From positions 1-64,000 of the IMG/VR virus record IMGVR_UViG_3300020037_001525: a stretch of DNA of 64,000 nt. One strand, given 5' to 3'. A program made the position numbers and the translations under genes. The stretch is from a virus. Lineage: Duplodnaviria > Caudoviricetes. Below, piece by piece: positions 22,781 to 64,000 of the stretch (positions are counted from its first letter, which is position 1; each line of letters begins with the position of its first letter). The notes beneath the pieces were generated by a model that had not been told where the DNA came from, did no database searches, and was given only the letters and a program-made list of their open reading frames with translations.

Positions 22781-24848
22781 TTATTTCGATAAATTTATGA
22801 TTTGTGTTTTGTCATACGAATATAGTGTATTACTGCCTGAATAATCCTCAAACTTTGTCTTACCTGTAATCGCTATTAACTTTCCCTTTAACTCTGGGAT
22901 GACGTCTCTAAATTCATCGAGAACATCTTCCCACAACATAACTCTTATTAAATCGCTGTTAGAAATCAACTCCATGGTGCAGTATTGAGAACCTTTCTTG
23001 GTAGTTTTCTCAATATAGAAGTTCAAAACACCGCAAATACAAACTTCTTTGTAATCTTTGCTTCTTTGAAACTCAATGTTATTGACATACATTGACTTCA
23101 AATTGTTAAGTCCTGAATTAGACAGCATTTGCTTATAGTCAACATCCCCATATCCTGTCAATTCCTTCTGTTTGAATATCCAAAAATAATCTTTGTATAT
23201 ATCTTCTGTTTGAAATTCTTCAGGGATATCCTCTTCAAATCTATCTAAGTGTTTTAAGACTAAAGATATACGTTCGCTTGGTTTGTTTATGTATTCTAAT
23301 TCATCGAAACAGCCTGACAATATCAAATTCATCAGTGTTTTCTTGTTGACATTCTTCTTAGGTATTCTGTTTGCAAAATCATTGTATGATTTAAATGGCT
23401 TTATTGTTCGTTCTGCTATTATGTGTCTAACATTAGCTTCGCCAACCCCTTTTATTTTAGTAAGAGACCAATATATGTTCTCATTATTGCACTCAAACTT
23501 ATTTGTAGATGTATTTATTGATGGTGGTTTCAATTGTATCTCCTTATGAGTCTTGCTCATCTCTGATATCCTATACATTATTTCGTCTTCAGAAGCATGC
23601 TGTAACGACGTTGTCCAAAACTCCAATGGATAATTAGCCTTAAACCACTGTGCCCAATACGCTATTATCGCATACGCTGATGCATGACTTTTATTGAATC
23701 CATAACCACCGAATGCAAGCAATTTATTCCATATCTTAATAGCATCGTGTTTATCACAACCTCTTTCCTCTGCCCCACTTATGAACTTTTGCTGATATGT
23801 AGCCATTATGTCTTTCTGGAACTTCTTCATATTTGTACGAAAACCATCAGACTCCACTAAAGTGAAACCACCTAATGTTACAACTGATTGCATGATTTGC
23901 TCTTGGTAGATTGTTAAACCATATGTGTTCTTAGTCACATCTTCTAACATATAATCATACTTCAACTTTCGTTTGCCATGCTTAATTTCTGCAAACTCTA
24001 TATGAGCATTGCTACTCATCGCTCCTGGTCGCCACAGCGCATTCATCGCTGTAAGTTCCTCTATGTTCTCTGGCTTAACTTTCGTACTGAAATTCTTCAT
24101 TCCAGATGAATTGAACTGAAATATGTCTTCATTGCAACCTCTTGCGAATAGTCTATAAGTCTTTTTGTCATCTAATCTTATATCATCAAGCACTATATCA
24201 TCACCCTTATTAACCTTTACCATATCTATTATGGACATAAACTTGTCTAATTGTGATAATCCTAATATATCTTCCTTCAGAAATCCTGCATTGTCTGTGT
24301 ACTTCCCTTCCCATTCAGCAACCAATAAACCATCTATCATTCTTACAGGCAACCAATCGTTAACATCGTATTCTTCACCGTGTTGATTCTGTTCTGGCAG
24401 AACTAATACTGCAGAAGCATGAACTGATGATGACCTTGGCTGTTCAAGACAGAACTTAATCATATTTATGATGTCAGGATATTGTTGACAAAAATTGTAC
24501 AATCCTTTGTTCTTAGTTGCATATTTGAATATATCTTCCCACTTATAGCTTACTTGATGTCCTATTGCTTTGGTTATCAAATTGCTGTATGTGAAGTCCA
24601 AATTTCTAACTTTAGCAAAGTCCTTCAACCCTGCTTTTATTTGCAATTTCGTGTATGTTCCTACTGAGCAAGTCTGAAACTCACCGAACCTTTCACGAAT
24701 GTATCCCTTCACAACGTCTCTGTATTCGCTTGGGAAATCCACATCGATATCTGGTATTTGCGCTCCCTTTATATTTCTACAAAGGGAGCAATTGAGGCAA
24801 AGAGTCCTTGCGCATCTCTTTGCTATATTCTATTTTTTTAATTTTCAT
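22781..24848 (-). CDS. dnaE: DNA polymerase III alpha, C-terminal half (predicted ATG at 24848, then a +1 skip over the 24752-24794 insert into the PDIDVDF frame)
   Basis: PDIDVDF, KEDILGL, NALWRPG, YQEQ, YGFNKSH, HhH and OB-fold motifs; the track ORF starts at GTG 24742, downstream of the catalytic PDID; no ATG in that frame back to the TAG at 24830-24832. Confidence 0.85.
24752..24794 (-). other. candidate ribosomal bypass (coding gap): stop-containing hairpin flanked by matched codons
   Basis: CCT-CAA-T[TGCTCCCTTTGTA GAAA TATAAAGGGAGCG]CAA-ATA-CCA-GAT; 13-bp stem (two G-U) with GAAA loop; in-frame TAG at 24777-24779. Confidence 0.6.
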
Positions 24849-25602
24849 TTAATATTGTTTTCTTTCTTGTCATACCTAATCTCCAACCTTCTGGTATTGG
24901 TTCCCCAATTCTTATTGCTGTATTTGTGACTCCGTTTGTTATCCTGACCTTCCCATACATTCCATTGTTTTCTCCCTTATTCAAATCGGACTCTAATAGT
25001 TTCTTGCTTAACTTTAACTTCATTTCTTCATTCCACTTATTTCCGAAGTTGGCATTCTTGTTGCCTTTTCGACTTCCATCTGAAAATTTCTTTGATAAAT
25101 GCGTCTTTTGTTCTTCACTCCAATTGTTTCCATAGTTTGGATTCTTATCTCCAATCAACTCCCTGCCTAAGATTGATAAATTCTCCTTGTATTCAGGATT
25201 ATTCTCATATCTTTCATTGATTATGGTTCTTAGCTTATTTCTAATTTCTGGTTTGCTCATTGCTTCTCTCATCCTTGGGAGCATATACTCCCTAATTCTT
25301 GGATTTTCTATTGGTGTTCCCTGACCAAAACAATTAGCAGTACCTTCAAGCAAATTATATCCTATTTCAATATTACAAGATTTGTATTTCTTTATATAAA
25401 CCATCTCAAATGCATCTAATTCTTTCTGAGTCTTGCATTCTCTCAACAATTCCTTGACGAAATTATGCAAACCGTGTTTCTTTATGGCTTTTCTTAACAG
25501 TGTACCACTTCCTATGTATTTATTTGATTTATCAAATGGATGCTTATGTTGACCAATATAAATCTTCCCATTGACTAAGCATGTTGTCTTGTATATATAC
25601 AT
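24838..25602 (-). mobile_element. GIY-YIG homing endonuclease with NUMOD3 repeats inserted within dnaE
   Basis: YIYKTTCLVNGKIYIGQH...YIGSG..L.KAIKKHG..NF; G..NP.YG..WSEE.K..LS repeats; lies between the two dnaE halves. Confidence 0.9.
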
Positions 25603-25608
25603 AAAGAA

Positions 25609-25618
25609 TTGATAACTG
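25609..25618 (-). promoter_or_regulatory. CAGTTATCAA variant of the candidate late promoter upstream of the endonuclease
   Basis: Fills most of the 16-nt gap between the dnaE-N stop and the endonuclease ATG. Confidence 0.35.
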
Positions 25619-27268
25619 TTAATCTAAGTCAATGTCATCGTCTTCTGTGAGTTCCTCAACCAAAACTTCACCTCTTTTTGTCTTAACCTTTGTGCCGTAT
25701 TGTATTTGCTTAGTTGAACCATTAGCTAATTGCAAATTAACATATTGTATAGGCAACACCCTTGTTGCATTCAAGAACCTCTCAAAAAGCAAATCATATT
25801 CTATTGGGTCAACATTTGTGATAAATAACAAATGACAAACCAAAGAACCAGCAGCAGAACCACGACCTGTTCCAACCATAATATCATTCTGACCACACCA
25901 ATTTATTATATCCCAAAGTATTAAGAAATAATCAACAATCTCTGCGCTCTCTATCAATTCCATCTCAATCTCTACACGCTTTCTGTATAAATCAACATCA
26001 AGACCTCTTTTCTCAACTTTCTCAACAAATCCATATTCTACCAACTCTCTAAAGTACTGTATGTTGCCCTTGCCTTTTGGTGCAAAATTATACTTTGGCA
26101 GTCTTGGTATACCAACTTCGATGCTAAAGTTGCAAGAATCAACAACCTGCTTCACACTATCAAGCATAGTATTGAACAAACGATTAAAGATATGCTTGTC
26201 TTTATACATCTTGGATGCTTGTTCTTCAATTTCGCTATATGGCTTGAAGTGTTCATCCTCACTGTAAGAGGTTATACGCTTGTCAACCTTATTGAGATAT
26301 TCCTTCAACTGAAAATACTCTTTTTCTATGTAATAACTATCTTGTATCAAGATTGGTTGAATGTGGTCTGTATATTGCTTAGTATAATTTCTTATGAATT
26401 CAAGATTGCTCATGTCAACCTTATCTTCATAGAATTCAGTGTAATCAACCTGTTGGTAAATCTGAGTGAAGTGTTTCTTGTAATTATCCACTGCTTTGAC
26501 AAATCCTTTTCTATCATTCTGCAAATGGCTTAATAATCCGAATTTACAAAATACCAATATCAAACCTTCGGAATGTTCAAACAGTATCTCTTCGGTGATG
26601 AACTCACCATCAAACATGGAATTAGAATAGTTATTGATTTTCAGTAGGTTCAACCAACCTTGCTTATCCTTGACATAAAGTTTTACATCAAATTTCTTTT
26701 GTAATTTTTCTTCTGGGTTGTAATCATAAGCAACTGGGACTGTTCTTCCAAGTATTGATTTTATACCTGCATCCCTGCATTCCATTTGAATGGCCATGGT
26801 TGCTGCTAATGTATTTTTATCACATATGCCTAATGCATTCATACCTAAAAACTTAGCTTTCTTGACCCAATTCTTTGGCTTACCACTTCCATTCAATAAT
26901 TCGTATTCTGAATGTACTCCCAAGTGTATATACCTATCATTGTTCTTAATCGCACAGTTGCCGACATACTTAAAATCATTGAATTCTGCTGAATATCTAA
27001 GGTATTCTGAATCTCCTGTATACTCCTTTAGTTTGGAATAATACCACCTTTTGCCAAATTCAAACAGGAAATAGTCTATCTCATATTCTTCCAGATGCTT
27101 TTGTTCGACTGAATTGAGAGTGAAACAGCAATCCTCATCAATTATCTTGTGTTTCTTTGGGTTCAAAAGCAACAACGTGCCTAAACCTTCAACAGTGTAT
27201 AATGATTCACTTGCTTCCTCAACTATCAATAAGTTTTCTGCTATCCATGATTTTAAACTATCAGACAT
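25619..27268 (-). CDS. dnaE: DNA polymerase III alpha, N-terminal half (PHP domain to FERFLN plus a beta-rich acidic tail)
   Basis: HLGVHSEY..L.G; YFLILWDII; GTGRGSAAGSLV..LL.IT.VDP..YDLLFERFLN. Confidence 0.92.
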   Translation of the reverse strand: MSDSLKSWIAENLLIVEEASESLYTVEGLGTLLLLNPKKHKIIDEDCCFTLNSVEQKHLEEYEIDYFLFEFGKRWYYSKLKEYTGDSEYLRYSAEFNDFKYVGNCAIKNNDRYIHLGVHSEYELLNGSGKPKNWVKKAKFLGMNALGICDKNTLAATMAIQMECRDAGIKSILGRTVPVAYDYNPEEKLQKKFDVKLYVKDKQGWLNLLKINNYSNSMFDGEFITEEILFEHSEGLILVFCKFGLLSHLQNDRKGFVKAVDNYKKHFTQIYQQVDYTEFYEDKVDMSNLEFIRNYTKQYTDHIQPILIQDSYYIEKEYFQLKEYLNKVDKRITSYSEDEHFKPYSEIEEQASKMYKDKHIFNRLFNTMLDSVKQVVDSCNFSIEVGIPRLPKYNFAPKGKGNIQYFRELVEYGFVEKVEKRGLDVDLYRKRVEIEMELIESAEIVDYFLILWDIINWCGQNDIMVGTGRGSAAGSLVCHLLFITNVDPIEYDLLFERFLNATRVLPIQYVNLQLANGSTKQIQYGTKVKTKRGEVLVEELTEDDDIDLD

Positions 27269-57145: not shown

Positions 57146-58582
57146 TTAATTGTTCTTGCTTGGTTTCTTAGCAAGTTTCTCTGCCATATCATAATGACCT
57201 TGAGCTGTTTCTGAATGTCTATTGGCTCTTTTAGGGTAATTGTTCATCATGGCTTTCACTGCATGTGCTGAATGAAATTGCGCTGCTTCTTTATGGTCTT
57301 GTGCTGTAAAACCATTGTAGTAATAATCATCTGCCTTGCGTTTCGCACTCACTCTCAATCCAGAAGTTGTTTCTCCTACATATCCTGGACCAGTTGGTAT
57401 AGGTTTTGATTCTGTATTCGTCCTCGTTGTACCCAACTTACCAGAACCTTTCAGGTTTGAAATTTGTCTGTTGGTTGCTTTCTCATTCTCCTCATTTTCT
57501 ATGCTATCACGCAATTCTTTTTGTGACTCTTCATGTGTTTGTGGTTTCTCCTTTGACAAATTATTCATGTGGGTTGTAGTCGTTGTCTTCAATCCATCAA
57601 GTCTAATTTTTCTCATGCTTCCCTTTAGTGCAGTAACCTTGCCTCTCCTTAGTTTACCACCATCATGCAACCAAACTTCTGAGCCAACTCCGTGTGGTAC
57701 ATCTGAATCTGGTTCATCATGCCCAGAAGCATCAAAGTCATGCTGTACAATAGCTTTCGATGGGTCAATTTTGTGCAATTCTTTTGTGGAAGGATGAACC
57801 CCCATCAAATTGCCTGTCTTCTTGTCATGACCAACAACATGAACTAAATCATGCTTGTAACCATTCACACTTTGTGGATGTTGCATCAATACTCTCTGAC
57901 CACGCTTCATCTGCACACCGAATTGGTCTTTTGTTCCTTGCTTCACATTATCGTGGTTGGCTGCGTGCTTTTTGATTTCTGATTTTAATTCTTCTGGCTT
58001 CATTTCTTCTTGTGTGTTTAATCTTGGTAAACCTCTGTCATCTTCAGAAGTATCTGGTGAAGAAGTTGCTGGTTTAGCTGTTTGCTCCAACTCCTTACCT
58101 TCTTCGTGGTGTTCTATACCTCTAAGAGACTTACTGTACGTATTGCCCTTGTCATCTTTGATGTGAGCTGTACCGAATTTATCATAAACCTCATGATGTT
58201 TGAGTTTCGTGATATGACCTACTTTCTTGATACCTTTATCTTCGAAAACAACTTTGTGTCCTTCGGAGAACTCATGCTTGTCACCGTTATCAGCATGTCT
58301 TGTATAGACTGTCTTCTGGTGACCATTTTTATCTGTAATGGTTTTCTTTTCTAAGTTCGCTATATTTCTCATACCTTTGTTGAACTCTGAAGCATCAATC
58401 AAATTATCCTGAAATGCTTTCGTAAGGTCTGTCTGGTATTGCTCCAAACCTTCTCTGGTATAGATTTCCACATGTTCATTTTGCTTTGAAACTTCTTTAT
58501 TTTCAACTGATTTCTCAAACTGGGATGCTATATTCTCAGCGATTTTCTGTCTTCTTTCTTGTAGTGATTGTGCTATGTTCAT
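57146..58582 (-). CDS. modular putative head-cargo protein B (478 aa)
   Basis: Shared domain IYTRE...TDLTK|A...SEFNK|GMRNIANLEKKTITDKNG...VYT; SH3-like modules; FTAQDH motif. Confidence 0.6.
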   Translation of the reverse strand: MNIAQSLQERRQKIAENIASQFEKSVENKEVSKQNEHVEIYTREGLEQYQTDLTKAFQDNLIDASEFNKGMRNIANLEKKTITDKNGHQKTVYTRHADNGDKHEFSEGHKVVFEDKGIKKVGHITKLKHHEVYDKFGTAHIKDDKGNTYSKSLRGIEHHEEGKELEQTAKPATSSPDTSEDDRGLPRLNTQEEMKPEELKSEIKKHAANHDNVKQGTKDQFGVQMKRGQRVLMQHPQSVNGYKHDLVHVVGHDKKTGNLMGVHPSTKELHKIDPSKAIVQHDFDASGHDEPDSDVPHGVGSEVWLHDGGKLRRGKVTALKGSMRKIRLDGLKTTTTTHMNNLSKEKPQTHEESQKELRDSIENEENEKATNRQISNLKGSGKLGTTRTNTESKPIPTGPGYVGETTSGLRVSAKRKADDYYYNGFTAQDHKEAAQFHSAHAVKAMMNNYPKRANRHSETAQGHYDMAEKLAKKPSKNN

Positions 58583-58615
58583 TGTATTTTGTTTTATTAT
58601 GATTGTTTATTTGTG

Positions 58616-59320
58616 TTAATTATAAACTCTTATTTCTATCATTGTTCTTGCAAGAATATCATCAGCTAATACATCTGATGAGTTGTATGTCTGTATTAGT
58701 AGAGCACTTGTTGATATGAATGTTATGTTAATAGTTGAGCCATCCATTGTTTTATAGATTGCATTGTTAGGAATAAACAAATTGTCCTCTATGAATTTGT
58801 TCGCTGAGTTCAATCTATACTCACCAACGTCATTTCTTGCGATACCTGTGATACCAATAGTATCTTCAAGAACCAATGCTGTTGGAGCAGCTGTTGCTGA
58901 TTGCGAGAGCATTGCTGTATAAGATTTGTATTGTACAGTATTAGCTATGTCAGCTAATATGATAGTCGCTATTTCTCTAATTGTGGTTGCTCCATAATCA
59001 CCACTATCAACTTCATCCAAATTCTCTTTTGTAAGATAATTCAACTCAAATACAACTCTGGTTGGATTTGGCATAGTTCTATCATTGTGCTTTATAATCA
59101 ATGAAGAGTTGAGATTGCCTTCGATTTCAGCTACGATATCTGTAAATGGCTGTATAAACGCTGCTAACACCAATGGCACATATGTTATCACCTGTGATGG
59201 TAGTATTGGATTGTGTGGTTCATATGAAATTGTTATATTCTCTAATGAATATACATTGATGACACCACTCCTATCAATTGTTATTGTTCTGTTCGTGTTA
59301 TTTACTGTTATACTTGACAT
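58616..59320 (-). CDS. putative virion structural protein (234 aa)
   Basis: C-terminal YKSYTAMLSQSATAAPTALVLEDTIG...IEIRVYN motif, of a type seen at phage fibre/appendage ends. Confidence 0.55.
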   Translation of the reverse strand: MSSITVNNTNRTITIDRSGVINVYSLENITISYEPHNPILPSQVITYVPLVLAAFIQPFTDIVAEIEGNLNSSLIIKHNDRTMPNPTRVVFELNYLTKENLDEVDSGDYGATTIREIATIILADIANTVQYKSYTAMLSQSATAAPTALVLEDTIGITGIARNDVGEYRLNSANKFIEDNLFIPNNAIYKTMDGSTINITFISTSALLIQTYNSSDVLADDILARTMIEIRVYN

Positions 59321-59345
59321 TTGTGAATTTTGTTTTTAGTATGTA

Positions 59346-61154
59346 TTAATCTTCTGTCTCGAATGCTTCTATGCCACCTAATCTTGTAAGCATCTTCTTA
59401 TATGTAGGTATAAGTGTTCCAATTTGTTTGTCCATGTGGCTATCTCCACCTACTTTCCACACATTGGTTGCCATATTATCCATGGCATGACGCCCAACTG
59501 AACTTATAAGGAATGCGCCTATCTCTCTGTCATTTAATCCTTTTTTACGGAGATAACCTTCTAATGCTGCATCACGCTCATCGTTTCTGTCATTGTGATA
59601 TATTGCACCATATCCACCTGCGTAATTTTGGAATGCTGGAGATTCAAACACTGCTTTGCTGTAACCGCCTTGTTGGATGCCGTCTCTGTGTTCCATTGTG
59701 GATTTGTTGTTCTCTGATGCAATTTTATCAATTTGTTGTTTATATGACAACCCTTCTTGATCGTCTAAATAAGAACCCTTGCCAACATGTCTTTCCCATC
59801 CAAGCTTATCTGCTGACTTATCGCCTATCAATTTTGCTCCCTTTAATCGGTCAACCAATTTAGCTTTAATAGAGCTTGCGTCTCTGTGGTCAGTGGCTGT
59901 GAAATCTTTGTGATTTTCATGATCAAATGCTATGTGAATGGGTTTACCAGAAGTTGTATTGCCTAACACTGCATCCCCACCCCTTTTCAGTGTTTTAGCA
60001 ATTTCAATATCATCATTTGCTGCCTTCATCTTAGCAGCTATTTCTGGAACTGCTGCCATTGGGTTTGTTTCTAATTTCACATCTTTCCACATTTTATCAA
60101 ATCTCACCCTGTTGATATGACTTAGTTGCGACACATGTTTAGCTACTTCAATCAGTTCATCATTTGATATATCCTTCTTCTGCATGATGCCGTTGGGATT
60201 GAATACTGTTGACTTTGCACTCCAACCTTCACCATCTTTCTTATATCCAAAGTGATTTGCTGCTTCTTCCCAATTATTCAACACCTTGCCATCGACCATG
60301 CTTCCGCTACTGTATCCGTGCTTCTCTGATATGTGATTCTTCATTTGGTGGTCAGACATCTTTGTATTGTTGCTTACATAGATTGTTCTCACAACACCGT
60401 TCTTGTCGGTCATTGTTTTCTTTGTAAGATGAGACAAATTCTTCATTCCTTTCTCAAAGTCTTCCTGAGATACTTCCTCAGACTCCATTGCTTTGTTGAG
60501 GTCTGTGATGTATTGTTGGATGGATTCTTCTGTGTAGAATTGGATGGATTTTTCAACTTTATTTCCTACGATGTTTGGTTGATTTGGTTTCTTTTTTATC
60601 AAGTGTATGTGAACTTCACCGTTGCTTCCAGAATCATCTCTTTTTGTTATGAGAGATTGATGGTCTGGGAACTTCTTACTGAATACGCTTCTTATGTTGT
60701 CATTATCTCCCACATTACCTTTTTTTGTCACTAATTTCAATTTATGACCACCGTGACCATCATGTTCGTGCGTATGAACTCCATACGAATGGAACTGGTC
60801 TCCATAATGGTCTTTATCTATGCTTTGAACAGCACGCTTTGCTTCATCTAAATTTCTGATATCTTTCTTTATAGGTTTTATGTTATCCGCATTGTGCACT
60901 TTTCCATTTGATGAATATCTTAAATCATTTGCTTCCTTATGTTCACCTCTTGTGAAATCTTTGTGCAAATCAGGAACAGCACTTTGATATATAGGCTTAC
61001 CACTTTTCGTATGTCCTATCACTTTACCACCTCTTGATCCCTCTGCTTTTTCAAGATCATTGTCTATACCAATAAATCTGTCTGCTATTCCTTTGCGAAA
61101 CGCTTGTTGTTTTGCTGCAATGGCTTGTTGCAATTGTTCTTGTATGTTTTTCAT
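59346..61154 (-). CDS. modular putative head-cargo protein C (602 aa)
   Basis: DLEK|AEGSRGGKVIGHTKSGKPIY, a second G.T.SGKPI copy, and the shared domain FYTEE...TDLNK|A...EDFEK|GMKNLSHL. Confidence 0.6.
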   Translation of the reverse strand: MKNIQEQLQQAIAAKQQAFRKGIADRFIGIDNDLEKAEGSRGGKVIGHTKSGKPIYQSAVPDLHKDFTRGEHKEANDLRYSSNGKVHNADNIKPIKKDIRNLDEAKRAVQSIDKDHYGDQFHSYGVHTHEHDGHGGHKLKLVTKKGNVGDNDNIRSVFSKKFPDHQSLITKRDDSGSNGEVHIHLIKKKPNQPNIVGNKVEKSIQFYTEESIQQYITDLNKAMESEEVSQEDFEKGMKNLSHLTKKTMTDKNGVVRTIYVSNNTKMSDHQMKNHISEKHGYSSGSMVDGKVLNNWEEAANHFGYKKDGEGWSAKSTVFNPNGIMQKKDISNDELIEVAKHVSQLSHINRVRFDKMWKDVKLETNPMAAVPEIAAKMKAANDDIEIAKTLKRGGDAVLGNTTSGKPIHIAFDHENHKDFTATDHRDASSIKAKLVDRLKGAKLIGDKSADKLGWERHVGKGSYLDDQEGLSYKQQIDKIASENNKSTMEHRDGIQQGGYSKAVFESPAFQNYAGGYGAIYHNDRNDERDAALEGYLRKKGLNDREIGAFLISSVGRHAMDNMATNVWKVGGDSHMDKQIGTLIPTYKKMLTRLGGIEAFETED

Positions 61155-61156
61155 CT

Positions 61157-63265
61157 TTATTGATTAAATTGTAATTTGTATTTTAATTTTGCTCCTATAC
61201 TGTACATCTCCTGTGCAAGATTTTCTACACCAATGAAACCCATCTCTTCAGCATAATTCTCAACGTCAAACGCTAAAACAATTATATGCTCAGCAACACC
61301 ATTTGGGTCTATACTATCACTGTAACTTTGTTTGTTATTCACCATAACAATCATGGTGTTGAACTTATCCTTGCCGACAAGCCCAAGAAGTTGTTCAGCT
61401 ATTGTATCTGTAAGAGAATCAAACTCTGATAGTGCCTCTCCAAATGCTTCATGTATCGGTTCACTTGCAGTCTTCAAGTGCACCCATTTAAGCCATACTT
61501 CCGTTTCATGCATTCTTGATATCAATGTAGACAATGTATAATCATCAGTGCTATCTCTTTCAACCTCTACTACTGGCATTTCTTTAATGTAATCTTCTCC
61601 ATTATCACCGACATCAACTCCTAAGTCTCCTAATGCTTTGATGATTTCATTGCTGTTAGATTTTGAAAATAACACCATGTCCTTAGCATCATGAACCCAA
61701 TCAACTCCATCTTCTTTGGCACCATGTATAATATCAAGAAGACTTCCAACTGTACGAATATTCAAATCATTCGTTTTGTTTTTATACTTGTCAAGGAAAT
61801 CAATGGCATCTTTCAAATCTGCTTGGTCGTACTTGATATCCTTGCCATCAGAGCCTTGAAACTTGATGTTATTGTATTCTTTGGTTTCAGGGTGTTGTGC
61901 TATATGTCGAATACGTTGTATTGTCTCGTCTGGAGTCATCGTCATATCAACCCTCAAAGACCTTGATTTCAATGGTTGTGGCACTTTATTCGGTGGTAGG
62001 TTTGATATAAAAACTGCTCTACCATTGAAATTAAACCTGTTTGGTATTGGTTGCCCAAAGCTATCTTTCAATGGTCTCTGTGACGCATAAGCCACTGTTC
62101 CATCTCCTGAAGTATCTAATGCACCTTTCCACAAACCTTCATCTGTGTCTGTTATGGCAGTATCACAGTCATCAATCATCAATATCTTACCATTGTGTTC
62201 ATACATTGCCTGATATAATCCAGCTGTAGTCGCTTTACCTGTTATCTTTACATAATCATAATCATCACTACCCACTTCCATACCTTCTTTGAATTCACGC
62301 TTACCAAGTTTCTTCAATTCTTGTTGAACAGTGTATGTCTTGCCAACCCCACCTGTTCCGTATGATATTACAGATTTCATGCCACCCTTGCCAGAAGCCA
62401 CAGAACGCACAAATCTTGCAAACGTATCAAAACGTCTGTTAATATCTCCTCTGCCTTCCTCTGCTTCATCTGCTTTCTTCTCACCAACTATCTTGTCTGC
62501 TGCTGCGTCTGCATCCAGTGGATTGTCCTTGTCTTTTTCTTCAGATTCTCCATCTTTCTTGTCACCTCTACTTTCAAGTTCCTTTTCAGCTATTTTCTTG
62601 ATGTTTTCATCTTTTGTGGTCTTGATAGTGTTCTCTAAGCCACCTCTCGATGCTTTCTTAGCGAAATTTTGTAAATCTTCTGGAGAGTGTTTTGGTTCTT
62701 CCTGTTTCTTACTACCTTCTCCATGAGGACTATCGAACTGATGTGGATGCTTGTTGATTGTCTGTCCACCATGTTCTTTATCAAGTTTAATTGCATATTC
62801 TCCTGTTTTGCCAACGCTACCAACAGTTCCTGTTACTTTGCTTCCCTTATGTTCAAGTTCTACCTTAGAACCATGTTCTGCGTGTTCTCGGTTGCCTTTG
62901 TTTGGGTCAACCCAACGATGCATCATCTTACCATTAACATTCACTTCTTTCAAGACAAGATGTGAAGTATTGAGTTTGCCACCTTTCTCAAAGTAATCAT
63001 CATCTTCAAATGATTTACTAACAATATCACACAAATCGTTGACTTGGTGCATGTGGTCTTCGTGGTAGTTCTGCATAAACTCCTTCACTGATTCTTTGCT
63101 ACCGTAATGGCTGTCTTTTTCTCCATCTTCTGTCATCCAATCATGATATTCCTTCTTCAATTGTTTAACATCAATATCTTCACCTTTTTGTAAATTATTA
63201 TCAATAAAAGATGACGCTATACGTTGCGCCTTACTGTCCCCAATATTAAAGTTTGTCAGATTCAT
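61157..63265 (-). CDS. modular putative head-cargo polyprotein D: SH3-like + AAA ATPase + Dps/ferritin-like domain
   Basis: YFEK|G...SHL; YGTGGVGKT Walker A, LMIDDCD Walker B, ISN, SRS; VHL...IHEAFGE....DSLTDTIAEQLLG. Confidence 0.75.
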   Translation of the reverse strand: MNLTNFNIGDSKAQRIASSFIDNNLQKGEDIDVKQLKKEYHDWMTEDGEKDSHYGSKESVKEFMQNYHEDHMHQVNDLCDIVSKSFEDDDYFEKGGKLNTSHLVLKEVNVNGKMMHRWVDPNKGNREHAEHGSKVELEHKGSKVTGTVGSVGKTGEYAIKLDKEHGGQTINKHPHQFDSPHGEGSKKQEEPKHSPEDLQNFAKKASRGGLENTIKTTKDENIKKIAEKELESRGDKKDGESEEKDKDNPLDADAAADKIVGEKKADEAEEGRGDINRRFDTFARFVRSVASGKGGMKSVISYGTGGVGKTYTVQQELKKLGKREFKEGMEVGSDDYDYVKITGKATTAGLYQAMYEHNGKILMIDDCDTAITDTDEGLWKGALDTSGDGTVAYASQRPLKDSFGQPIPNRFNFNGRAVFISNLPPNKVPQPLKSRSLRVDMTMTPDETIQRIRHIAQHPETKEYNNIKFQGSDGKDIKYDQADLKDAIDFLDKYKNKTNDLNIRTVGSLLDIIHGAKEDGVDWVHDAKDMVLFSKSNSNEIIKALGDLGVDVGDNGEDYIKEMPVVEVERDSTDDYTLSTLISRMHETEVWLKWVHLKTASEPIHEAFGEALSEFDSLTDTIAEQLLGLVGKDKFNTMIVMVNNKQSYSDSIDPNGVAEHIIVLAFDVENYAEEMGFIGVENLAQEMYSIGAKLKYKLQFNQ

Positions 63266-63521
63266 TGTTTAATTTTTGTATAAATACTGTGAATAATTTT
63301 ACTCCATGTTCATTTGTAACTACACTCTTGTTCATTCTATGACACTCTAACAAAGCTTCTCTGTATTCATTGCTATTAATCTCATCATCATCATACGATT
63401 TCTTCAAATCTTCATTGTATCTTGTCATATCCTTTTGAGTGAAAACAGCAATCTCACCAGCCTTCATCTGTTCATTGAGAAGATTGATGGTTATTTCTTT
63501 GCTATCACTTAATTCTGCCAT
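63246..63521 (-). CDS. stand-alone copy of the cargo-array shared domain (91 aa)
   Basis: VFTQKDMTRYNEDLKK|SYDDDEINSNEYREALLECHRMNKSVVTNEHG...VF. Confidence 0.6.
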   Translation of the reverse strand: MAELSDSKEITINLLNEQMKAGEIAVFTQKDMTRYNEDLKKSYDDDEINSNEYREALLECHRMNKSVVTNEHGVKLFTVFIQKLNNESDKL

Positions 63522-63538
63522 AGTTCAAATTTAAAGTC

Positions 63539-63548
63539 TTAATAGCTG
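63539..63548 (-). promoter_or_regulatory. CAGNTATWA motif heading the cargo array
   Basis: CAGCTATTAA 17 nt upstream of the ATG at 63521. Confidence 0.45.
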
Positions 63549-63553
63549 TTTCA

Positions 63554-64000
63554 TCAAAACACAAATTCTGATAAACTTCTATCAACGACATTGTTAACGA
63601 TTGTATCATCGTCTGTATTATCGATTGCTTGCTGTGCAAGGTTATGCATCTTTATACCTTTATGTATCCATGAACTTGGGTCAGATAAAGCACTTACTGT
63701 TCTGAAACTGTTGTACGTTGATTGTTGTGCTCCGCTTGGGAATGTCTTGAGACTTCTTACAATACCTTCATATATTGAAGACTTATGAACATAAGCATCA
63801 AAGGTCTTGCCTAAATTATTTGATGTTTCTGCTCTGGTCTTCTTTTGCAGAAATTCGACTGCCAAATCCTTGAAACCTATTCCTTCATTATTTCCTTTTG
63901 TCTTCAAAATCGCATAGATTTCTGGTGGAAGAACGCCAGAAAAAATCTCATTCTCACCGATTGCTCCTGTTGTTGCCCACCTGAATGGTATGCTTATGTA
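63554..64000 (-). CDS. virion morphogenesis / head-tail connector protein, partial (5' end beyond the window)
   Basis: Frame is open to the window edge: ISIPFRWAT.GA.GE.EIFSG..P..IY; C-terminal YNSFRTVS..SDP.SWIH.G. Confidence 0.6.
   Translation of the reverse strand, partial: YISIPFRWATTGAIGENEIFSGVLPPEIYAILKTKGNNEGIGFKDLAVEFLQKKTRAETSNNLGKTFDAYVHKSSIYEGIVRSLKTFPSGAQQSTYNSFRTVSALSDPSSWIHKGIKMHNLAQQAIDNTDDDTIVNNVVDRSLSEFVF

Follow-up and report, generated by a model that had tools for sequence, protein, structure and literature searches.

What brings a AAA+ ATPase and a Dps-like four-helix domain together in one polypeptide, in a gene lying among head-morphogenesis genes and through a linker whose motif recurs in the phage capsid protein? 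The question is raised by an open reading frame (ORF) in the window analysed here, a 64-kb stretch (positions 1 to 64,000) that forms the first part of a single 89,937-bp contig (IMG/VR record IMGVR_UViG_3300020037_001525) from a myovirus whose genes all lie on the minus strand. The ORF (61157–63265, minus strand; protein P0001) encodes 702 residues plus a stop codon without interruption. We are confident of both domain identities, an AAA+ ATPase and a Dps-like domain of the DUF5856 family. As a complete explanation, belief and doubt are evenly balanced on whether the ORF encodes a modular head-cluster protein that would be packaged and cleaved in the prohead. Taken separately, a location inside the head is slightly favoured by the comparative data, and cleavage at the linker is proposed tentatively, with doubt marginally the stronger.

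The C-terminal domain belongs to a viral family with the signature residues of Dps. A phmmer search with residues 541–702 against 1.84 billion representative proteins returns 44 proteins at E ≤ 0.001, all matching on query residues 574–702, and of the 33 non-self matches scanned with Pfam (from 43), 29 match DUF5856 (PF19174) at E ≤ 0.001 and 15 of these exceed the family cut-off. The domain also matches phrog_858 (E 7e-4), and its nearest clusters in the protein Atlas are those of DUF5856, an almost wholly viral family whose clusters are 96–100 % viral. Residues H596, H605, D620 and E624 are invariant in 30/30 sequences, comprising the query and 29 free-standing members, and the profile of this 30-sequence alignment, compared with all PDB sequences, places Dps proteins on top, namely HP-NAP 1ji4 (E 3.3e-6), MrgA 2chp and Listeria Dps 1qgh. 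Specifically, the four invariant residues align with His/His/Asp/Glu of 1ji4, 4evd and 2chp, the positions of the inter-subunit ferroxidase (iron) ligands of Dps. In the AlphaFold (AF2) model of the domain (predicted local distance difference test score, pLDDT, 88.7), four long helices span 12–32, 36–64, 88–109 and 112–135 in model numbering, with the ligand residues placed where helix A ends and along helix B. It is fair to describe the C-terminal domain as a Dps relative of reduced length, specific to phages and belonging to the RI.-1 family, and the conserved ligands make metal binding a reasonably likely prediction.

The same family contains phage T4 RI.-1. With a family member as query, at least 827 deposited phage records are retrieved, mostly from T4-like and Vi1-like phages, in which the gene is labelled either rI.-1 or 'starvation-inducible transcriptional regulator', the latter probably a garbled Dps name. 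In Escherichia phage AR1, rI.-1 (L035:2438–2824) lies directly after the antiholin gene rI in the tk–rI region; its product scores 114.5 bits on PF19174, aligns with the profile of the present domain in hhalign (97.9 %, E 6e-13), and keeps H33, H42, D57 and E61 in the same 9/15/4 spacing as the query domain. RI.-1 is described as a 129-residue hydrophilic protein of unknown function whose only reported phenotype is a prolonged lysis inhibition when it is overexpressed together with RIII (Golec et al. 2010, PMC2962797), and this paper, the one study of rI.-1 function that the search found, nowhere mentions Dps or ferritin. The literature search returns no occurrence of 'DUF5856'.

Upstream of the Dps-like domain, residues 247–531 match phrog_1250 (E 2.8e-34), a PHROG of unknown function, and a search of 5.8 billion proteins defines a family of 90 members including the query. 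In the alignment of the query with 22 homologues, on which all counts out of 23 given here are based, the Walker A residues G303, G305, G306, G308, K309 and T310 are invariant in 23/23, as are D365 and D366 of Walker B (LMIDD, 362–366), N422 of sensor 1, S434–R435, and N502/R504/T505 of the lid. The Walker B motif carries Asp in place of the usual Glu, as in DnaA-type proteins. An AF2 model of residues 262–550, built from 63 sequences (pLDDT 92.5), shows a strand and helix order that fits an AAA+ core plus lid, with an inserted β-hairpin that separates the Walker B strand from the sensor-1 strand. Foldseek returns 184 matches in the PDB at E ≤ 0.001; among the matches listed, all are AAA+ ATPases, led by HslU, RuvB, NorQ/CbbQ, ORC, clamp loaders and Lon, all with template modelling (TM) scores of 0.4–0.5. 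Because these matches are generic across AAA+ groups, no subfamily is assigned. A clamp-loader identity (phrog_168, E 3e-6) was rejected, as the fold search does not prefer clamp loaders over HslU, RuvB or MoxR-type proteins, and the whole-family profile finds only weak P-loop matches among PDB sequences (kinesin, E about 0.006), rejected as uninformative. In the protein Atlas, the ATPase falls among viral AAA clusters. Together, these features describe an AAA+ ATPase that is complete, carries a pre-sensor-1 hairpin and appears to be active, its activity being predicted from the conserved motifs. The two domains were modelled from separate alignments; a joint MAFFT alignment, in which short proteins fell on the ATPase region, was discarded.

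An earlier note on this DNA had reported a complete AAA ATPase followed by a ferritin-like C-terminal part of Dps type, and both identifications are borne out, the former by phrog_1250, the motifs invariant in 23/23 and the AAA+ fold in AF2 and Foldseek, the latter by the 30/30 ligand residues and the profile matches to Dps in the PDB at E 3.3e-6. All motifs that it quoted lie in the one ORF, at or a few bases from where it had placed them: GTGGVGKT at residues 303–310 (62336–62359), LMIDDCD at 362–368 (62162–62182), ISN at 420–422 (62000–62008), SRS at 434–436 (61958–61966), VHL at 595–597, IHE at 604–606 and DTIAE at 620–624 (61394–61408). The linker that it had put at about 61636–61672 is present as LFSKSNSNEIIKALG, residues 532–546, with an exact span of nucleotides 61628–61672. 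The extent that it had assigned, 61157–62450, covers residues 272–702 and misses the 271 N-terminal residues, the ORF starting at 63265. The full protein is built of the following parts, where ↓ marks a candidate cleavage point.

63185..63265, minus strand: N-terminal leader, residues 1–27, ending LQK27↓G; an N-terminal 'YGxxKAxQ..SF' pattern is conserved in the alignment.
62984..63184, minus strand: variable spacer, residues 28–94, differing in length and sequence among homologues and ending at the conserved FEK94↓G.
62711..62980, minus strand: conserved small domain, residues 96–185 (GKLNTSHLVLKEVNVNGKMMHRWVDP... HPHQFDSPHG), delimited in the alignment of homologues.
62483..62710, minus strand: charged low-complexity linker, residues 186–261, poorly conserved and of varying length.
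61661..62482, minus strand: AAA+ ATPase module, residues 262–535, with Walker A 303–310, Walker B 362–366, sensor 1 N422, S434–R435 and helical lid R504.
61628..61672, minus strand: family-conserved C-terminal end of the ATPase, pLDDT 67–78; FSK535↓S and IIK543↓A are its candidate cleavage sites.
61547..61627, minus strand: acidic spacer, residues 547–573, with no conserved internal Met.
61160..61546, minus strand: Dps-like four-helix domain, residues 574–702, with H596 (61478–61480), H605 (61451–61453), D620 (61406–61408) and E624 (61394–61396).

The border between the two modules coincides with a conserved feature of the ATPase family. The fusion itself occurs in 2/90 family proteins, the query and P0002 (84 % identical to the query and also intein-bearing), and is thus real but young. 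At the first linker site, [FL]-x-K-[SAG] is present in 23/23 aligned homologues with K535 invariant, and Phi-x-K-[AS] occupies the second site in 20/23. A regular expression anchored on the lid recovers the first site in 63/90 homologues and, within 40 residues of it, the second site in 56/63; the other 27/90, mostly the most distant proteins, are not resolved by this expression. Most other homologues stop soon after the linker stretch, and where C-terminal extensions occur they begin after such K motifs. Since the homologues' tails end at the linker stretch, the Dps-like domain has been added exactly at the natural C-terminal tail of the family. An internal translation start that would yield the Dps-like part separately was rejected, M563 being not conserved and absent in P0002. 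The Dps-like domain is a shuffled module, found also at the N-terminus of relatives of the window's 478-residue protein.

Analysis of the whole contig places the same motif in proteins of the prohead. Counts of Phi-x-K-[SAG] were compared with shuffled sequences (300 shuffles): the ORF encoding the prohead protease and its scaffold-like tail holds 21 motifs against 2.9 expected (7-fold, z 11), a number reached in 0/300 shuffles, and the 868-residue topoisomerase protein and the 517-residue protein hold 9 against 4.2 and 7 against 3.2, respectively. In the capsid proteins of the source phage and 12 relatives, Phi-x-K-A occurs at about residue 30 in 13/13, preceded by a variable leader and followed by a conserved body, and is the predicted maturation site. 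Leaders of 21–28 residues ending in the motif are likewise present in the target (LQK27↓G) and in the 602-residue (FRK21↓G), 478-residue (FEK24↓S) and 517-residue (MNK28↓A) proteins, and the motif is absent from the first 60 residues of nine other structural proteins. In the target, K27, K94, K535 and K543 are conserved motif positions, and a protease specificity for them is predicted from this distribution. The protease gene of the source phage is contig ORF 69600–71306, and its N-domain, the first ~170 residues, gives a weak Peptidase_S78 match (E 0.0017, below the cut-off). Cleavage after Lys is known from HK97, at Lys103. In the staphylococcal HK97-like phage phi12, cleavage of capsid protein and Ccm is reported to follow R128 and K87 (PMC8569155). 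The accessible literature on the prohead protease specificity of SPO1/Twort-like phages, to whose capsid proteins that of the source phage is similar, offers nothing usable, and phi12 is the sole precedent with Lys or Arg at P1 that the search found.

Both modules are tied to the prohead in related viruses. The target gene has capsid and neck genes on one side and the tail sheath gene on the other, which places it in the head-morphogenesis cluster, and in 25/27 related viral loci (the exceptions being L017 and L021) portal, protease, capsid or sheath genes are found no more than about 10 kb from the ATPase homologue. In Chryseobacterium phage MA9V-3 the homologue has its place between the portal and capsid genes. 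In two loci of identical arrangement (L024:7529–10822, and L027 at the same coordinates), a 1098-residue ORF has a prohead protease (phrog_1028, E 1e-32) at its start and the ATPase (phrog_1250, E 2.7e-22) at its end. For the Dps-like domain, tblastn against deposited phages finds matches only in Chryseobacterium phages MA9V-2 and MA9V-1. In MA9V-2 the domain (48.7 bits) forms residues 473–572 of a 1207-residue coding sequence, which has the portal gene on one side, the capsid gene on the other and a T4-type S77 prohead protease at its start; this protein carries 18 NE[SAG] motifs against 1.8 expected (0/1000 shuffles), one of them directly after the Dps-like domain. In addition, 13 of the phmmer matches are multi-module proteins, several of which have modules in common with the window's 478- and 602-residue proteins. 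Within the K-motif lineage, nine multi-module DUF5856 proteins place a K site within 17 residues upstream of the domain in 9/9 and within 34 residues downstream in 8/9, and in the E-motif lineage Phi-x-E sites follow the Dps-like domain. Collectively, these cases show the ATPase and the Dps-like domain alike as modules shuffled among proteins of the head gene cluster.

The joining of protease and AAA+ module on one polypeptide in L024 and L027 also bears on a different role for the ATPase, in which it would be an unfoldase partner of the prohead protease, Lon- or HslUV-like, clearing scaffold or core proteins, with the Dps-like domain as passenger cargo. The order of parts in the 1098-residue ORF, namely prohead protease, three GSRGG/HTKSGK modules, small domain and AAA+ ATPase, with 18 K motifs, amounts to a Lon-like protease-plus-AAA+ arrangement. 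HslU and Lon are among the best Foldseek matches, and the pre-sensor-1 hairpin of the AF2 model is of the kind inserted in the HslU/Lon group in the classification of AAA+ proteins; RuvB, NorQ, ORC and clamp loaders, however, score alike at TM 0.4–0.5. In the source phage, moreover, about 6 kb separate the protease gene from that of the ATPase, and phages with proteases that require no such partner also have stand-alone ATPase homologues. We regard an unfoldase role as very improbable.

Under the preferred reading, that of a packaged and processed head protein, the 702-residue protein would be taken up into the assembling prohead, where the S78-like protease would cut after Lys at Phi-x-K↓[SAG], with K27, K94, K535 and K543 as candidate sites. 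The products would be an ATPase module of about 49 kDa (residues 95/96–535) and an acidic Dps-like protein of about 18 kDa (residues 544–702). The latter may dimerise or oligomerise, building inter-subunit iron sites, and could oxidise or sequester Fe(II) beside the packaged DNA or, after ejection, in the host; the ATPase may act as a pre-made early function after ejection. Free-standing homologues could be reconciled with such a scheme if the modules serve early-acting functions that are expressed early in some lineages and delivered ready-made in others. The earlier note had likewise proposed a polyprotein releasing both domains inside the head; the domain identities stand, and the release, suggested by comparative evidence from the locus, the protease fusions and the K motif, is about as credible as its opposite.

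Several observations weigh against this reading. For the Dps-like domain, the query stays below the Pfam DUF5856 cut-off of 34.6 bits, with 19.2 bits for the whole protein (E 0.0026) and 24.8 for the domain alone (E 4.7e-5), and neither gives a match to Pfam Ferritin (PF00210) at E ≤ 1. The two His are separated by 9 positions rather than the 12 of Dps, a three-residue deletion. The top Foldseek rows are Dps proteins (TM about 0.6) but the best E is 5.8e-3, with no PDB match at E ≤ 0.001, and the VIA-align Z scores of 10–11.5 to ferritin-like chains lie in a range that helical bundles can reach by chance. Residues 544–702 are acidic (isoelectric point 4.28; 11 K+R versus 30 D+E). Dps of the E. 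coli type, which is not universal, binds DNA through a lysine-rich tail; the acidity of the present domain makes binding or condensation of DNA through a basic tail unlikely and iron handling the more likely activity. The best-known DUF5856 member, T4-type RI.-1, sits in the rI operon and is tied to lysis inhibition, not to heads or iron, and we know of no report of RI.-1 in T4 heads. For the fusion, a Dps-like domain lies within 10 kb of the ATPase gene in 0/27 related viral loci, which leaves the fusion without wider support and led us to reject a separate Dps-like neighbour gene as its source. For the motif, the conserved LWK380↓G (in KGALD) lies within the folded ATPase core, so conservation alone is no marker of a cleavage site, and FSK535, which ends the last lid helix of the AF2 model, could be structural. 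The target protein as a whole carries 6 K motifs against 3.9 expected, which is not significant, 55/300 shuffles reaching 6, and in Bacteroides phage DAC19, Enterobacter phage EnC15 and Escherichia phage ph0011 distant ATPase homologues are free-standing, surrounded by small ORFs that are non-structural.

The last two of these points favour a late-expressed bifunctional protein that would stay in the cytoplasm, unpackaged and uncleaved, its Dps-like part lowering iron or peroxide stress, its ATPase doing an unrelated job, and its place in the cluster reflecting expression timing. Free-standing homologues of the two modules alike occur in non-structural regions of other phages, and published phage Dps-like genes are read, in the available parts of the reports, as cytoplasmic host-tolerance functions (PMC8008677, PMC6669764). 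Such a protein would nevertheless leave unexplained the fusion of the ATPase to a prohead protease in L024/L027, the Dps-like domain inside the MA9V-2 protease polyprotein, the identity of the module-border motif with that of the predicted capsid maturation site, and a leader like those of the neighbouring proteins. We consider the cytoplasmic protein unlikely.

The structural setting of the linker raises a further alternative, an intact fusion in which the Dps-like domain would, by dimerising, oligomerising or sensing metal, organise or regulate the ATPase, whether within the head or elsewhere, and the K motifs would be structural or serve docking. FSK535 belongs to the last lid helix, IIKALGDLG is predicted as a short helix in a stretch (residues 532–550) of pLDDT 67–78, and the many homologues that end only 8–20 residues past the second motif would fit a C-terminal docking peptide. 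Yet the domain is present in 2/90 ATPase homologues, so the ATPase does not need it, and the acidic 27-residue spacer resembles a flexible tether. Fusions to the N-terminus of Dps are tolerated because Dps N-termini face outward from the dodecamer, and Dps-fusion chimeras are among the PDB profile matches; an AAA+ ring, usually six-fold, would however be mismatched in symmetry to a Dps-type assembly, and in other proteins the same domain is flanked by motifs on both sides. On this evidence the intact fusion is improbable, and more so than the cytoplasmic protein.

The genes around the target follow the transcription order portal, a 300-residue protein, an 868-residue protein with a topoisomerase-IB core, the prohead protease with its long scaffold-like tail, the major capsid protein, three small structural proteins including a NUDIX hydrolase, a 626-residue intein-bearing protein, a 91-residue protein, the target, proteins of 602, 234, 478, 517, 181 and 243 residues, and the tail sheath and tail tube. 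Deposited phages give no nucleotide match to 58000–64000, and a transfer RNA scan of the window finds none; among named phages, those nearest to it are DAC16-23/SJC03 of Bacteroides and MA9V-3 of Chryseobacterium. The 626-residue ORF directly upstream (63554–64000, continuing to contig position 65434; L001:555–2435) contains an intein with Hint and Intein_splicing matches and a DUF559/HNH-type endonuclease, and its ends match proteins of roughly 270 residues that in relatives are flanked by the neck genes and the ATPase gene. Within the ATPase family, homologues P0002, P0018 and P0024 carry a LAGLIDADG-type intein in Walker A, between GVGK and T, starting with Ala and ending HN before Thr. The DNA polymerase gene of the window (22781–27268) is in two pieces, split by a GIY-YIG/homing-endonuclease ORF (24838–25602).

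In the conserved small domain of the target, T100, S101, L103, L105, K106, G112, R117, W118 and V119 are nearly invariant. The domain has only a weak Pfam match (Big_6, E 0.007), and its one weak PDB match, to a nucleotide cyclase tail including a His-tag, was rejected as uninformative. A 'K-x-G-x-x-x-T-V-Y/RWVD' element with an SH3-like stretch, akin to this domain, recurs in the neighbouring proteins of 91 (63246–63521), 602 (59346–61154) and 478 residues (57146–58582), and a module GSRGGKVIGHTKSGKPIY recurs in the 602-residue neighbour and in many relatives. The NUDIX hydrolase gene among the neck genes (contig 66235–66723; L001:3236–3724) is fused in one ORF with the ATPase module in loci L013–L015 and L026. 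Outside the window, between portal and prohead protease, the 868-residue protein (contig 71337–73943; L001:8338–10944) carries a eukaryotic-type topoisomerase IB core (PF01028, E 3.2e-17) and is a further candidate packaged enzyme.

If packaging and processing are correct, an AAA+ ATPase and a mini-ferritin join the cargos that tailed phages pack with their DNA, and Phi-x-K↓[SAG] becomes a simple sequence rule by which such cargos can be sought throughout a large group of Bacteroidota phages, most of them uncultured. Apart from packaging, the function-unknown DUF5856/RI.-1 family gains a testable biochemical lead, as a shortened Dps-like protein with all four iron ligands in at least 827 phage genomes, including T4-like ones, and the annotation 'starvation-inducible transcriptional regulator' for DUF5856 is affected by the likeness to Dps. 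The literature search, which covered sources other than subscription journals and supplementary files, found no Dps-like module in a head polyprotein, no fusion of one to an AAA+ protein and no report of a Dps likeness of RI.-1.

Compared with cellular Dps (HP-NAP 1ji4, B. subtilis MrgA 2chp, Listeria Dps 1qgh), the query domain has the same four-helix bundle with one His closing helix A, a second His opening helix B and Asp-x3-Glu further along that helix, and some members of the DUF5856 family keep the 'HW' dipeptide of Dps. It differs in being about 25 residues shorter, in having its two His three residues closer together, and in lacking a clear BC helix in the long loop. By this likeness, the domain probably works as Dps does, through an inter-subunit di-iron site. 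T4 RI.-1 is closer still, being of the same family with the four residues in the same spacing and, like the query domain, acidic, hydrophilic and about 125–130 residues long, as far as its published description goes (PMC2962797); it differs as a free-standing gene beside rI, whereas the query domain, which falls short of the Pfam cut-off, shares its head-cluster gene with an ATPase.

Internal head proteins offer a second comparison. T4 IPI–III and Alt are internal head proteins that carry a capsid-targeting sequence and are processed by the prohead protease, and to our knowledge no AAA+ ATPase or Dps is among the processed head cargos of the T4/SPN3US type. The T4 proteins and the ejection proteins of phiKZ-like SPN3US, so far as the latter are described in the available text (PMC10052503), resemble the present case in their head-cluster genes, in leaders ending in a motif common to scaffold and capsid protein, here only a predicted protease site, and in enzyme domains as cargo, here a putative one. 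They differ in the processing signal, L/I-x-E or S/A/G-x-E with an S77 protease rather than the predicted Phi-x-K↓[SAG] with an S78-like protease, and the present protein is a candidate cargo, predicted from gene comparisons. [quoted passage not shown] These genes, unlike the present one, are free-standing and are read as host-tolerance or replication factors, and the available portions of the reports describe no fusion to an ATPase or protease.

A broader proposal would be that several phage lineages use their HK97-fold capsids as encapsulins use theirs: a mini-Dps released by the protease would be loaded to detoxify iron near the genome or be ejected against iron or peroxide damage, and here it would ride on a packaged AAA+ injected effector. 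This generalisation is doubtful, though somewhat less so than the cytoplasmic protein; it would also imply that T4 RI.-1 is a Dps-like protein that binds iron. Encapsulins with ferritin-like cargo (EncFtn and IMEF, as portrayed in the available parts of PMC5012862 and PMC6668986) share with the proposed head cargo an HK97-fold shell that loads an iron enzyme of the ferritin superfamily through a short targeting element. They differ in holding no DNA, in using C-terminal targeting peptides, in undergoing no proteolytic maturation, and in drawing their cargo from other ferritin-like families. By analogy rather than membership, encapsulins are the nearest analogue for a possible mode of action of the Dps-like domain inside a phage head.

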